This document shows, piece after piece, positions 13,260 to 38,545 of a DNA stretch of 64,000 bases. The DNA lies in the IMG/VR virus record IMGVR_UViG_3300035698_006513. One strand, 5' to 3'. Made by a program: the position numbers and the translations under genes. The first letter of the stretch is position 1; every line of letters starts with the position of its first letter. Under the pieces are notes generated by a model. That model saw nothing but the letters and a program-made list of their open reading frames with translations, did not search any database and had not been told where the DNA came from. This DNA is from a virus.

Positions 13260-13664
13260 ATGGAGGTGTACATGATACATTTTATGGCGGGTTTACAGAT
13301 CACTGATGTCACATCATATCTTATCGCTTCTGGGTCATTAGCGTTAGCCGTATTGTTTATACGTAAGTGGATAAACCGTATAGACAAGCGCGTAGACACA
13401 GCAGACGCGGCACTGAAGAGTGCTAAAGTTGCTACAGATGACCTACAGAGTGAAGTAGATGGGTTGAAAGCAGAGGTGGCTACACTAAGAGACGAGATTG
13501 TGCTTAAGGAGGCTACTGCGAAACTGGAAGGGAAAGTTGACGTTATTACGGGATTGGTATCGAATGCTACGAAAGTAAACCATGACCTGATGCGTGAGCA
13601 GATAGACAGTGTTCGCAGAGAGTTTCAGCGAAGTCTCGAAGAGGATAAAAATGCCAAATCTTGA
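13260..13664 (+). CDS. Single-TM coiled-coil protein (holin-like or kinase partner)
   Basis: TM YLIASGSLALAVLFI followed by about 90 aa of heptads. Confidence 0.65.
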   Translation: MEVYMIHFMAGLQITDVTSYLIASGSLALAVLFIRKWINRIDKRVDTADAALKSAKVATDDLQSEVDGLKAEVATLRDEIVLKEATAKLEGKVDVITGLVSNATKVNHDLMREQIDSVRREFQRSLEEDKNAKS

Positions 13665-14409
13665 TTCGTGCCCATCAAAAGATTTGATAATTACTGCGAG
13701 AACCCGGCCACTAAGTCCCGAAGAGAGAGACTGTGTAAACAGTTGTCAGTTTGGTGATATAGCAGAGCAATTTGTAAGTATCACACACGACCTAAAGTCG
13801 CCACTACGACACATATCATACTACTTGAATATGGCGATAGAGAGGGCTACAGAAGTAGAGCCAGATACGCAGTTACTAGATTATCTACTGAAGGGTGATG
13901 AGACTATCGACTCGGCATTACGACTCATCAGTAACTTGATGGAGTACTTCGACCCTAAAAGGGGTAAGGATACTTTTAGGATGAACTCGGTGCTAAGAGA
14001 GGCAATTACGTTACAAAACGGCAGCATGGATCGAACCGGAGCAAAAATAAGCATACCTGATGAAGATGTTTATGTGGAATTCAACAGAAAGCATTTGATA
14101 CGCATCTTGTCTAATCTGATTAACAACTCACTAAAGTATAAACATCCCGACCGCGAACCTCGTATAAACATATCTACGTCCAGCTGTGACGACAGGCTAA
14201 CTATCCGATACCAAGATAACGGTATCGGTATTAGCAAGGAACACTGGGAATGGGTATTTGAAATGTTCATGCGGGGTAATCACGATCAAGATGGTTCAGG
14301 GTTAGGTTTAGCACTATGTAAGAAGTTGCTAAAAAAAGAGGGCGGGGACATACGCATATCTGACTCAAGTGATGCAGGCACCACGTTCGAGTTCTTTATC
14401 CCAAAATAG
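13651..14409 (+). CDS. Histidine kinase (HisKA + HATPase_c) without a sensor domain
   Basis: H box THDLKSPL, N box NLINNSLKY, G1 DNGIGI, F box VFEMF, G2 GSGLGLA; GAGGA RBS before ATG 13651. Confidence 0.93.
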   Translation: MPNLDSCPSKDLIITARTRPLSPEERDCVNSCQFGDIAEQFVSITHDLKSPLRHISYYLNMAIERATEVEPDTQLLDYLLKGDETIDSALRLISNLMEYFDPKRGKDTFRMNSVLREAITLQNGSMDRTGAKISIPDEDVYVEFNRKHLIRILSNLINNSLKYKHPDREPRINISTSSCDDRLTIRYQDNGIGISKEHWEWVFEMFMRGNHDQDGSGLGLALCKKLLKKEGGDIRISDSSDAGTTFEFFIPK

Positions 14410-30129: not shown

Positions 30130-30687
30130 TTAGAAGCCTAGTACAAGATTAGGTATTCCTATACAAGGGACACAATGTACGCCTTGAGTAGTGACTTCAG
30201 GCTGTTTATGACATATACACAATTCACCTTCGTCTAGAATCCCCCCAGTATCTCCATTTATAACGCGGAACACCTCACCAACCTCAACATCCATAAAGGA
30301 TTTTGGTGCTTTAAATGCACCTGCTGTCCACACTTGTACTTTTTTGAAGTTCCTAATCGTACTTTCAAGTTTCTGGGGCTTGCGTACTTCTTCTCCTTCT
30401 TGTACTACGCGGACAAAGTTAGTATGGGCTCCTACTTCCCTGTACTCAAGGAGGATAGATCTGTCGCTACGCTCTTTTGTGTTTAACTCTTCCAATACAT
30501 CTGCGGTAATTGTCTCGTACTCCACCCCTGTAGGGATAGCAGCGCGGGACATGTTAACTGCGGATACGTAGAGTCTCGTACCATCTCGCCATAAACTCTC
30601 TCCTGTGCACACTTCAACAAAGAATTCCATAAAACTGCTCCTACCATATTTAGGTCCGTCTAAGGGTAATCCATCAGCAGACATCAT
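30130..30687 (-). CDS. Hypothetical protein
   Basis: AGGAG RBS; ATGA-type coupling. Confidence 0.65.
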   Translation of the reverse strand: MMSADGLPLDGPKYGRSSFMEFFVEVCTGESLWRDGTRLYVSAVNMSRAAIPTGVEYETITADVLEELNTKERSDRSILLEYREVGAHTNFVRVVQEGEEVRKPQKLESTIRNFKKVQVWTAGAFKAPKSFMDVEVGEVFRVINGDTGGILDEGELCICHKQPEVTTQGVHCVPCIGIPNLVLGF

Positions 30688-31187
30688 TTATCTCCTGCAA
30701 CAGGGGTCACGTATGGGAGATTATGCGTATTAGCAAGATACTCAGGTACCTCTATAACAAGATTCTCCCACGCACCTTCTTCTTGACTAATAGAGTCTAT
30801 ATGTACTACGCGGTACGATCCTCTCTGTAGGGATATTTTGCGTCTACTGAAATAAGCAGTATCGGCTCCACGGGTCTCTATGTATAATTTAGAGCAAGTA
30901 ACGCGTACAAACGCTGCCTCATCGCCGCCACCAGATAGATCTAATGGAATGTTGACGTCATCCAACTCAGGCTGATACGTCGACGAAGACTTGCTTTCTT
31001 TCTTTATGACTATTTCCGCGGGATCGGACTTAACATACTCAACAACTTCATTGACATCAAATCTAATCTTAGACCCAACTCGGAAGAAGGGGTAACCATA
31101 CGTCTGTACGCATCTATCCAGGGTACGAACTGAGATGCCAAGTATCCCGGACATTCCCTTACGGTCCACTATATGTAAACCACTCAT
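30684..31187 (-). CDS. Excisionase/MerR-type HTH DNA-binding protein
   Basis: RKGMSGILGISVRTLDRCVQTYGYPFFRVGSKIRFDVNEVVEYV. Confidence 0.8.
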   Translation of the reverse strand: MSGLHIVDRKGMSGILGISVRTLDRCVQTYGYPFFRVGSKIRFDVNEVVEYVKSDPAEIVIKKESKSSSTYQPELDDVNIPLDLSGGGDEAAFVRVTCSKLYIETRGADTAYFSRRKISLQRGSYRVVHIDSISQEEGAWENLVIEVPEYLANTHNLPYVTPVAGDK

Positions 31188-32227: not shown

Positions 32228-32537
32228 TAGATTTAGCTCCTTATTGAGGACACTAATATAAATGTTGTGCAAAGGGTGAGTTGAGGACTGCTTCTTTCCT
32301 CACCACGGCAAGTATCCCAGTGCGATTCTGAGTCTGGTCCGCCGCACAACACTATACGGGAGTGCAAATCCCGTCAACAGCCCAAACCTAGAGGGAATAA
32401 GGGCTGGGTTTTTAGTAAGACAATCCCAAGTTTTGACTACTGACACAGCAAAAACTTTAGTTTATAGGGGGATAATCCCACAAACATAGGAGTGCCCAGT
32501 TTCATGTACGAAGCTGATTAGGGGGATGACTCGTACA

Positions 32538-32617
32538 TGGTGGATACGACAGGAATTGAACCTGTGACCGACTATGACCAACTGACCATAGCTGCTCACC
32601 AATTGAGCTACGTGCCC
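32538..32617 (-). ncRNA. tRNA-like RNA with enlarged anticodon arm and encoded CCA
   Basis: GGGCACG/CGTATCC-A-CCA acceptor, D arm GCTC/GAGC, T arm ACAGG-TTCAATT-CCTGT; anticodon region 5 nt too long. Confidence 0.75.
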
Positions 32618-32775
32618 ATTAAGATGCGTGTCCCGTTTAGGGAATTGAGCCCTAACATAGTCCTGACTGCCACCACCCGTGTAATGAGGACAGTGTAAGC
32701 AGACTACCTAGATAAAGCCTTCAGTATATAACGCTACACGGCGGTACATAAAGATGACTCACCTCGGAACATAAG

Positions 32776-32849
32776 TTGCGGAAGCGGGATTTGAACCCAC
32801 GACCTCGTGGTTATGAGCCACACGCGCTACCAGACTGCGCTATTCCGCA
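32776..32849 (-). tRNA. tRNA-Met (CAT), initiator-like body
   Basis: TGCGGAA/TTCCGCA acceptor; TGTGG-CTCATAA-CCACG anticodon arm; GTGGG-TTCAAAT-CCCGC T arm. Confidence 0.9.
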
Positions 32850-32855
32850 AAAAAA

Positions 32856-32919
32856 CGTCTCGATATAGGATTTGAACCTACCTTCACCGGTATTCTAAGC
32901 CCGATTGAACTACCGAGAC
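32856..32919 (-). ncRNA. 64-nt tRNA-like RNA lacking an anticodon arm
   Basis: GTCTCGG/TCGAGAC acceptor, D arm GTTC/GAAT, T arm GTAGG-TTCAAAT-CCTAT, only 10 nt (ACCGGTGAAG) between D and T arms. Confidence 0.7.
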
Positions 32920-32929
32920 ATATAAAAAG

Positions 32930-33003
32930 TACCTAGGGTGGGAATCGAACCCACACTTTTAGGATTTTAAATCCTATACGTCTACCGCTTGCGTGACCTA
33001 GGT
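32930..33003 (-). tRNA. tRNA-Leu (TAA) with short variable loop
   Basis: ACCTAGG/CCTAGGT acceptor; TAGGA-TTTAAAA-TCCTA; variable loop AAAGT; GTGGG-TTCGATT-CCCAC. Confidence 0.85.
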
Positions 33004-33419: not shown

Positions 33420-33950
33420 TTATTTTGTTCTGAACAGGCTACCCAGTAAGGTCCATTCGTACGAGGATATGTTCCCCGAATGGATAGGTACCGCATCAAC
33501 CGATTTCTTCACAGTAATCGTAATGTTATCGCTAGTAACCCTGACTACACACCAATGGCACTCTTGCTCCAAACCTTCCGGAGTGAATTGCAGTAGCATG
33601 TCATGTGGGCGAGACGCGTTGTCTGAGTCATCACAGTCTATAAGAGACAGTCGTCTATACTGATCCTTATCCACTTCTACCAGCGCATATGGCTGATGCT
33701 CACCATCATGAACCAGATCACTAGGCTCATCACCGCTGGTAGTAGCGTCCTCTATAATGTAGGAGGGTATACTATCAAAACGTGCGTTGGCTACGTCCCT
33801 CCTTACCTCTTGAGCCACCTGTAGCCACATTCGTTTACTTATGCGTATCCCAATCTTCACATCGATATTGTCGTAATCCTCTCGCAGTGGAGCTACTAAT
33901 ACAAAGTACGGTTCGTTGTCTGTGTCTCTGGGTAGTGTGACTTTTCTCAT
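33420..33950 (-). CDS. Paralog-family protein (array 1; lacks C-terminal tag)
   Basis: FVLVAPL...IGIRISKRMW N-terminal motif. Confidence 0.6.
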   Translation of the reverse strand: MRKVTLPRDTDNEPYFVLVAPLREDYDNIDVKIGIRISKRMWLQVAQEVRRDVANARFDSIPSYIIEDATTSGDEPSDLVHDGEHQPYALVEVDKDQYRRLSLIDCDDSDNASRPHDMLLQFTPEGLEQECHWCVVRVTSDNITITVKKSVDAVPIHSGNISSYEWTLLGSLFRTK

Positions 33951-37386: not shown

Positions 37387-37914
37387 TCATGGCCTCACTA
37401 ACGGTAATTGTACTGTGGGTACAATATTATCTCGTTCAAGTCTCAGGCAAGACAGGACTATAGCTATCTCTTCTGGAAATATCTGCTCCGATTTTCCTAA
37501 ACCATCCACCTCCCAGTGCACACACTCACTAGAGAACACTATAGATGAGTTAGTATCTTCGTACTCCTCTACACCATCACACACATTACCCTGCGTCACT
37601 CCAACTACATCGCCATTGGTACCTGTATCCACACCTACGGATATAGAGTACAATGACCTATTTTGCATATACCCAGGCAGGTATATATAAGGAGCACGTC
37701 TAATTATCACTCCGCTATTTTCGTACTTTGTTGCGTACAGACGCAACTGACGTAATGCGTAGTTATAATATATATCTATCATATTCGTTATCATGTGCGT
37801 CCACATAGTCAGCTGTGGCTTATCTACCCTGTGCAATAGAGTGTGCTCTGTGCCTATAGGAACTGCCATCATCATTGTAGGAAAGTTATCACTATCTTGT
37901 GGCAAATCAGTCAT
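37387..37914 (-). CDS. Paralog-family protein (array 1)
   Basis: MMAVPIGTEHTLLHRVD; ends TVQLPLVRP. Confidence 0.7.
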   Translation of the reverse strand: MTDLPQDSDNFPTMMMAVPIGTEHTLLHRVDKPQLTMWTHMITNMIDIYYNYALRQLRLYATKYENSGVIIRRAPYIYLPGYMQNRSLYSISVGVDTGTNGDVVGVTQGNVCDGVEEYEDTNSSIVFSSECVHWEVDGLGKSEQIFPEEIAIVLSCLRLERDNIVPTVQLPLVRP

Positions 37915-38545
37915 ACTTATAATCCTCTACACCCTGCAGTACAGCAAACCTGTGTATACGAATCCACTGTTCGTCTAGTCTTGCGTCTGATGCGTCCAGA
38001 TTATATGGACCAGTAAACGCACTCTCTACGAAATCTCGTAAAAACTCCCCTCCTACGATAGGCTGAGGTGTGTTTGTGTGCTTCAACATCAGATTTATTG
38101 TGGATGACGCTGTATTATCTGCGTGCGGATATGAGTAATCTAGGTCTACGCGTTTCATACCCATACCTGCGTACCACTTTGCCTGTCTGTCCTTTGCCTC
38201 CAATACAATCCAATCAAATTGCGGATGGTTTGCGTACGAGTTTACTACATACGAAAACACCTCTGACCCATATCCACGTCCTTGTACGGTTGTGCACATA
38301 GACAGGTATGACAGCAGTACGTATTTGTGTTTGATGTTCTCGTGCACTACGTAAAAACCTATTATACCCGTCTTCATTCGCACAATATACACTTTATACA
38401 CTTTCTTGCGGACAGATTCTGTCATACTGCGGATAGATTCACGTTCCCGTGCAGGAAAGACGTCTCCGTACATAGAAATAAACGTTGACCATGTGAATCC
38501 GTACGCTTTATGTAGCTGTTTTATCGTTAAACGTCCCATACTCAT
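37907..38545 (-). CDS. GNAT-family N-acetyltransferase
   Basis: Acetyl-CoA motif LSYLSMCTTVQGRGYGSEVF; IVLE; WYAGMG. Confidence 0.85.
   Translation of the reverse strand: MSMGRLTIKQLHKAYGFTWSTFISMYGDVFPARERESIRSMTESVRKKVYKVYIVRMKTGIIGFYVVHENIKHKYVLLSYLSMCTTVQGRGYGSEVFSYVVNSYANHPQFDWIVLEAKDRQAKWYAGMGMKRVDLDYSYPHADNTASSTINLMLKHTNTPQPIVGGEFLRDFVESAFTGPYNLDASDARLDEQWIRIHRFAVLQGVEDYKYD

Follow-up and report, generated by a model that had tools for sequence, protein, structure and literature searches.

What could a phage gene be for that folds as a tRNA and ends in an encoded CCA, if its anticodon arm is closed into an over-long helix? The question is raised by an 80-nt gene, CCA included, on the minus strand (32617→32538) of a 64,000-nt stretch of IMG/VR record IMGVR_UViG_3300035698_006513, hereafter the window. 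A sequence-only reading of the window had proposed that its product was a decoy, a frameshift or stop suppressor, or a non-ribosomal tRNA. The non-decoding part of this proposal stands, and a decoy or other non-ribosomal role is the leading, though unproven, reading of the gene. We give an even chance to its being a non-decoding mimic, derived from tRNA-Asn and bearing an alanine-type acceptor end, that acts as a decoy for some tRNA-binding factor.

Cloverleaf, ancestry and amino acid identity

The 80-nt RNA belongs to the tRNA class: the Rfam RF00005 model aligns to 32617-32541 with 45.0 bits against a gathering score of 29 (whole-window E 2.4e-6), and a cloverleaf with a 9-bp anticodon stem is the fold of lowest energy for the entire RNA. 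The same alignment has to fit 12 nt into the place of the model's 7-nt loop, and ARAGORN at its default settings misses the gene. Of the 25 possible stem pairs 24 are formed, which speaks for a mimic. An assembly artefact was rejected, as the insertion lies outside any homopolymer and the ORFs are intact across the window. The parts of the gene and its neighbors are collected in Table 1.

Table 1. Positions of the tRNA-like gene, its parts and the neighboring RNA features in the window
Feature	Position	Strand	Basis and remarks
tRNA-like RNA gene	32538..32617	(-)	Rfam RF00005, 45 bits; cloverleaf lowest-energy fold; sequence
Acceptor 3' strand CGUAUCC, then A73 and CCA	32538..32548	(-)	Sequence, RF00005 alignment; pairs with 32611-32617
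Canonical T arm ACAGG-UUCAAUU-CCUGU	32549..32565	(-)	RF00005 alignment, fold
22-nt anticodon arm	32571..32592	(-)	9-bp stem, three pairs G.U, AGUU cap at 32583-32580; no U33, no 7-nt loop
D arm GCUC-AAUUGGU-GAGC	32594..32608	(-)	4-bp stem, 7-nt loop; G18, G19 present, A21 absent, A15 faces C48
157-nt spacer, four-way junction	32618..32774	(-)	-47.4 kcal/mol, z -1.77; opposite strand z +0.30
tRNA-Met(CAU), no encoded CCA	32775..32849	(-)	ARAGORN, Rfam
Second non-decoding tRNA-like RNA, 63 nt	32857..32919	(-)	tRNA-Sec model 21 bits, below threshold; fold
tRNA(UAA), short variable loop, no encoded CCA	32929..33003	(-)	ARAGORN, Rfam
Hairpin directly 3' of CCA, 8-bp stem UGUACGAG/CUUCGUACA	32505..32537	(-)	Fold of downstream 98 nt
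Terminator-like hairpin, then T run	32460..32485	(-)	Likely end of the tRNA operon

The D and T arms had both been described as normal. This holds for the canonical T arm, as does the encoded CCA; for the D arm the word is generous, given its 7-nt loop, the missing A21 and the A15 opposite C48. The description must also be corrected for one mismatch in the acceptor stem (RNA 1-7/70-76), which is paired at six of seven positions: G1-C72, G2-C71, G3.U70, the C4.A69 mismatch, A5-U68, C6-G67 and G7-C66. The variable loop reads CGGUC. From the core tertiary set the RNA has U8, A14, G18G19 and the T loop; A21 is absent, and the usual 15:48 pair is broken by the non-standard A15.C48. Three of these features, A15.C48, the lack of A21 and C4.A69, look like decay of the body and count against a mimic.

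A BLAST search of phage records returned 13 matches over at least 80% of the length of the RNA, with E-values that are weak because the query is only 80 nt long. Eleven of the 13 are tRNA-Asn, nine of them annotated and two unannotated but called by ARAGORN. The acceptor, D, variable and T regions align with those of phage tRNA-Asn genes, such as the ones of Phage C48C1 and the 735-kb phage LR756501, and a C-N-GUU-R-R string is retained in the middle of the arm. As judged from this alignment, in which the body as a whole agrees with tRNA-Asn, the RNA body derives from a tRNA-Asn, although its identity to the nearest one is only about 75%. It is set apart from tRNA-Asn(GUU) by a 22-nt arm without a 7-nt loop or U33, by A73, by G3.U70, by the lack of A21 and by A15 in place of G15. 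The best near-full-length match comes from Xanthomonas phage JGB6 (OQ436456.1, L001:600-671); it is an Asn-like gene without annotation that has a 6-nt anticodon loop and that ARAGORN reports as tRNA-???. The remaining one of the 13 is likewise unannotated.

The identity marks of this tRNA-Asn body are no longer those of asparagine. The bacterial asparagine determinants are G73, G34, U35, U36 and A37 (PMC9976931, Table 1), and the matched tRNA-Asn genes have G73 together with G3-C70; the present RNA has A73, and its GUU falls within the closed arm, with a G as the next base. Those of bacterial alanine are A73, G2-C71, G3.U70, G4-C69 and G20 (PMC9976931, Table 1), of which it carries three, namely A73, G2-C71 and the major G3.U70, and like tRNA-Ala and other AlaRS substrates it also has G1-C72 and the CCA. 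It differs from tRNA-Ala in its Asn-type body and in the two minor determinants, C4.A69 standing for G4-C69 and U20 for G20, a lack that weighs against a mimic. By this comparison, the acceptor end has exchanged its asparagine-type marks (G73, G3-C70) for the main alanine set. The AlaRS does not read the anticodon when charging (PMC9976931), and for this reason, given the alanine set of the acceptor end, we infer that the RNA could be alanylated, at least weakly; on its sequence, charging with alanine is plausible.

RNAs that AlaRS charges in the absence of anticodon reading include minihelix-Ala and the tRNA-like domain of tmRNA. That the gene might itself belong to a tmRNA was rejected: ARAGORN found none in the window or, at a relaxed threshold, in the cluster, there was no Rfam tmRNA match, and there is no message part. 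A YrlA or Y RNA-like element was likewise rejected, the sole RF02553 match (19 bits, cut-off 69) lying at 32849-32984, outside this RNA.

The main rival to a mimic is a decaying tRNA-Asn gene. It would have been inactivated by a 5-nt insertion in the anticodon arm and would now be drifting, with the arm pairing, G3.U70 and the CCA either coincidental or inherited. The departures from the consensus at A15.C48, A21 and C4.A69 are what such drift would leave, and the acceptor changes beside G3.U70 are single, plain transitions (G→A and C→U), which again speaks against a mimic. Asn-like genes with broken loops do occur in other phage records, that of JGB6 with its 6-nt loop among them. It is harder to reconcile with decay that all stem pairs but one have stayed intact despite the roughly 75% identity to the nearest tRNA-Asn, that a sealed arm, the alanine set and the CCA coincide in one gene, and that a compact genome, 92% coding, should purge dead genes. 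Decay is a real possibility, if one that falls short of being probable.

Geometry of the anticodon arm and the question of decoding

The anticodon arm occupies RNA positions 26-47 (GCUAUGGUC-AGUU-GGUCAUAGU) and has 22 nt instead of 17, just as the sequence-only reading had it. That reading had also given it a 7-bp stem with an 8-nt loop, extendable to 9 bp through G-U pairs. Both forms are recovered, and the 9-bp form is the one of lowest energy: with its 4-nt loop it reaches -6.2 kcal/mol, compared with -4.7 for 7 bp and an 8-nt loop and -0.1 for 5 bp and a 12-nt loop. The four extra pairs have computed probabilities of 0.70-0.89, which favors a mimic. The RNA thus presents a tRNA body in which a helix capped by AGUU replaces the anticodon loop. 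On the other side of the ledger, full sealing gains just 1.5 kcal/mol over the 7-bp form, and the cap is weak, being neither a GNRA nor a UNCG loop.

Two of the four extra pairs are G.U, so that the helix is confined to the RNA of the minus strand; a helix that exists only in the RNA sense strand cannot have originated by palindrome correction at the DNA level. In the DNA the same bases form a direct repeat of TGGTCA. A recurring motif TGGTCA-N2-TGGTCA was rejected, the window having three matches where six are expected.

How often would such closure arise by chance? In random or insertion models, 2-4% of 12-nt loops close down to a tetraloop, and shuffling of the whole arm reaches the energy of the real one in 2.6% of trials (p = 0.026). 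The earlier view that the retained pairing suggests selection can accordingly be kept as suggestive only, at p of about 0.02-0.04 for a gene without any homolog found. That the chance values are just 0.02-0.04 is also an argument for the decaying tRNA-Asn gene, as are the weak AGUU cap and the standing of the gene as a singleton. Moreover, the extended helix can be seen as a pair of UGGUCA hexamers; since this hexamer is self-complementary when wobble pairs are allowed, a duplication could have sealed the loop by accident.

In known decoders the anticodon stem has 5 bp, and 6 bp at most (PMC7609411). The stem of 7-9 bp in a 22-nt arm lies outside this range, and there is no U33 in any uncut register. 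The earlier statement that no anticodon can be assigned is borne out by the closure of the loop into a 7-9 bp helix. The TCA and GTT triplets that it pointed out are indeed there: UCA, GUU and UUG all fall in the loop region. The 80-nt RNA almost certainly cannot read codons. With the anticodon loop closed into a 7- to 9-bp helix, no triplet would be presented at the right distance from the CCA end, and the RNA would on that account be excluded from decoding.

A working decoder could conceivably take three forms: a suppressor of +1 frameshifts that has an 8-nt loop, a suppressor of UGA that uses UCA, or a tRNA with a tiny intron. The triplets of the loop region give this idea its footing, together with the result of ARAGORN with introns allowed (-i), a tRNA-Gln(UUG) after removal of a 3-nt intron CAG. 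Even so, the stem of 7-9 bp stands against a known maximum of 6 (PMC7609411), no uncut register has U33, and read-through of TGA adds nothing to a genome in which three stops are in normal use. As for a sufD-type frameshift suppressor, in the register with an 8-nt loop the stem has 7 bp and position 33 is a C, and the window gives no sign of recoding. The tiny intron was rejected, no mechanism for removing introns of 3-5 nt being known to us in bacteria or phages.

Under translation table 11 the window has 98 ORFs that cover 91.6% of it and end in TAA (50), TAG (25) or TGA (23). Reading through TGA raises coverage to 92.6% and lengthens no large gene, and stop-codon recoding was rejected since nothing is gained by it. 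A suppressor role is unsupported because the standard code already gives a density of 92% with all three stops used. With a stem 2-4 bp over the known-decoder limit (PMC7609411), no U33 and no need for recoding, the frameshift or stop suppressor of the sequence-only reading finds no support, and we hold a working decoder of any of the three kinds to be highly improbable.

The anomaly lies exactly where many integrases cross over, which raises the thought that the gene is the remnant or core of a tRNA-targeting integration site whose anticodon loop was rearranged by recombination. A weak excisionase-type HTH match (phrog_66, E 1.3e-4) occurs 1.4 kb away at 30684-31187. Against this, no integrase domain is found in the 96 ORFs of the window, and an attachment site needs just the 3' half of a tRNA, whereas here a full gene stands within a tRNA operon. 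Such an origin has next to no probability in our estimate.

The tRNA operon and its phage

The tRNA-like gene is the last unit of a minus-strand operon of four or five units. Their order is tRNA(UAA), a 63-nt anticodon-less RNA, tRNA-Met(CAU), the 157-nt spacer, the tRNA-like gene, a hairpin and a terminator-like site, and the terminator-like hairpin is likely the end of the operon. As its last unit the 80-nt RNA would be transcribed with the neighboring tRNAs, and with its acceptor/T/D body intact and a U at -1, its 5' end would be expected to undergo normal processing by RNase P. Within the operon the CCA is encoded in the 80-nt gene only, which speaks for a mimic; the bases after the tRNA-Met, the tRNA(UAA) and the mini-tRNA are CUU, CUU and UUU, respectively.

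The tRNA(UAA), which corresponds to Leu codons, has a 5-nt variable loop, unlike bacterial tRNA-Leu. Since tRNAs with the same anticodon arm and short variable loop are carried by 17 IMG/VR contigs (L074-L090), it represents a recurrent type of phage tRNA; these contigs share no genes with the window. The 63-nt RNA combines a 7-bp acceptor stem, a D-like arm and a canonical T arm with the lack of a CCA, and about 10 nt (ACCGGUGAAG) take the place of its anticodon arm. With two non-decoding shapes in one operon, the anticodon arm has been hit twice while the other arms were kept, again a point in favor of a mimic.

The spacer folds on the minus strand only, its junction closed by a 7-bp stem, and contains a T-arm-like hairpin, UUAGGG-CUCAAUU-CCCUAA. 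It matched no Rfam family; going by its modelled fold, it could represent one more tRNA-like RNA, of much enlarged size. From its predicted fold, the hairpin that directly follows the CCA is a possible 3' processing or stability element.

This arrangement lends itself to another explanation, under which the gene serves solely as a handle for processing. It would be a cut site of tRNA shape, for RNase P or RNase Z, that sets the 3' ends of the operon RNAs and plays no role as a free RNA. Its place as the last unit ahead of a hairpin and a terminator-like site would suit this, as would its position 3' of the structured 157-nt spacer RNA, whose 3' end would be set by the cut. A handle leaves the alanine-type acceptor end and the encoded CCA unexplained, however, and cut sites are already supplied by the real tRNAs next door. 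We hold it to be quite unlikely.

The surroundings of the operon offer few points of comparison. Searched with blastn, 50,697 phage records matched the 1-kb cluster in its tRNA-Met part only, and tblastn with a 1157-aa protein of the window had no match in the same records. Exact and gapped DNA patterns for the 80-nt RNA found nothing in IMG/VR or the JGI metagenomes, and neither flanking protein had a relative in IMG/VR. Among 5.8 billion proteins the upstream neighbor protein (33420-33950, minus strand) found only itself, on four contigs of which the longest has 124,666 bases. Of the 20 window proteins scanned, the only ones with a clear PHROGs or Pfam family are a ribonucleotide reductase and a protein with a tail-fibre/Ig-like domain. 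Relatives of the reductase do occur in IMG/VR, and since no other gene is common to their contigs and the window, these contigs are not from related phages. The tRNA-like RNA is a singleton, and its phage, a large and uncultured one, is very novel.

It counts against a mimic that the 96 ORFs of the window contain no partner gene with a PTH2, RNA ligase, Fem-type or aminoacyl-tRNA synthetase domain. PTH2 was rejected as a neighbor, being absent also from five viral records that carry other expanded-arm tRNA-like genes. A GNAT-like ORF (37907-38542, minus strand) was rejected as a tRNA-linked enzyme, its match (E 6.6e-4) falling below the Pfam cut-off and having no PDB relative; this ORF is the first in a block of minus-strand genes whose last part is the tRNA operon. 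ATAAG was rejected as a promoter mark, with 175 matches where 161 are expected. Elsewhere the window codes for a histidine kinase (13609-14406, plus strand; HATPase_c E 2e-24, together with HisKA) and a response-regulator receiver domain (E 5e-18), a two-component pair unusual in a phage, and one ORF has a weak match (E 3.7e-4) to the C-terminal domain of ribosomal protein L7/L12.

Look-alikes elsewhere and possible uses

Genes of similar build were sought with a pattern for tRNAs that have the same D-arm and T-arm words and 3-8 extra nucleotides in the anticodon region. It returned seven matches in four families in IMG/VR, two in 185,579 cellular genomes, both from Chitinophaga, and 22 in metagenome contigs, three of them ordinary tRNA-Asn. 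Counting the 80-nt window RNA itself, there are 16 families, and six of these (the window RNA, L009, the L013 family, L018, L023 and L031) have an arm of at least 9 bp closed by a loop of 4-5 nt. One further family has 5 bp and a GAAA loop, and the remainder have large open loops. Closure of the anticodon arm is hence recurrent and unexplained by chance, six of 16 being far above the few per cent expected. This excess, and the small number of matches in cellular genomes beside that in IMG/VR, both favor a mimic. The same search also yields plain broken loops, and the unstructured loops in about half of the retrieved families are in keeping with decay of the window gene.

Several of the expanded-arm families, which come from viral and metagenome contigs, belong to tRNA arrays of phage type. 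Copies in the L013 family that differ at about 20 positions of the surrounding 132 nt have the same 26-nt arm. Among the genes retrieved, the one closest in shape to the window RNA is found on a 3.2-kb metagenome contig (L018:901-980); it ends in CCA and has a perfect 9-bp arm helix with a 5-nt loop. Another tRNA-like gene, identical in four contigs (L005, L007, L027 and L030; L005:5858-5935), stands between a phage tmRNA gene and a tRNA-Phe gene, and combines a full alanine-type acceptor, GGGGCUG...CAGCUCC-A with G3.U70, with an abnormal AU-rich anticodon region. The window RNA shares with L009, L013, L018 and L031 a tRNA body whose anticodon arm is a long capped hairpin and a place in a phage tRNA array, some of these genes likewise having the CCA or alanine-type marks. 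It differs from them in its AGUU cap over two G.U pairs, as against a rigid GNRA or UUCG cap. No published description of phage tRNA look-alikes with a sealed anticodon was found in the literature.

tRNA-shaped RNAs that are processed like tRNAs and stay out of translation include the viral tRNA-like RNAs of MHV68, mascRNA and the species 1 RNA of phage T4. The tRNA-Other of B. cereus is of the same kind, tRNA-shaped and processed in tRNA-like fashion, with no role in translation (PMC3399842). All of these come from unrelated sequences and hosts, and none unites an Asn-type body, alanine marks and an anticodon helix of excessive length.

What comes closest in print is the idea that a changed anticodon loop lets phage tRNAs evade the anticodon nucleases of the host (van den Berg et al. 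2023, PMC10264068); a T5 tRNA-Lys resistant to PARIS is also on record (PMC11464382). The window RNA resembles such tRNAs in being phage-encoded, in having an anticodon region unlike the host type, and in a setting of conflict over tRNA-targeting defence. They keep a 7-nt loop and still decode, which the window RNA cannot, and for that reason the one role left to it would be that of a decoy; it could not serve as a replacement.

The use that we consider most likely for an RNA of this shape follows the lines of such a decoy. With the CCA already in the gene and an alanine-type acceptor end that would make it chargeable, at least weakly, the tRNA look-alike would occupy a host factor that binds tRNAs and would itself not enter translation. 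Candidate targets would be a defence nuclease directed at tRNAs, or an enzyme with the acceptor end as its site of action. A bolder version, which we think rather unlikely, would unite the alanine-charged tRNA barred from the ribosome, the mini-tRNA and the spacer in one tRNA-mimic operon that jams a tRNA-directed immune enzyme or feeds alanine to a non-ribosomal transferase. If this were true, the operon would stand for a new class of phage counter-defence or metabolic RNA.

Being a singleton, the window RNA cannot by itself carry the claim that sealed tRNAs exist as a kind. Two things make it unusual: the change from Asn-type to Ala-type acceptor marks, and the company of another anticodon-less RNA in its operon. 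On the present view, phage tRNA genes serve in part to counter host enzymes that cleave or modify tRNAs. An RNA that is tRNA-shaped, chargeable and non-decoding would follow another tactic, being a decoy and not a spare part. If sealed tRNAs are real and common in large phages, they would form an unexplored layer of the conflict between phage and host, one that lies in a blind spot of the tRNA finders.
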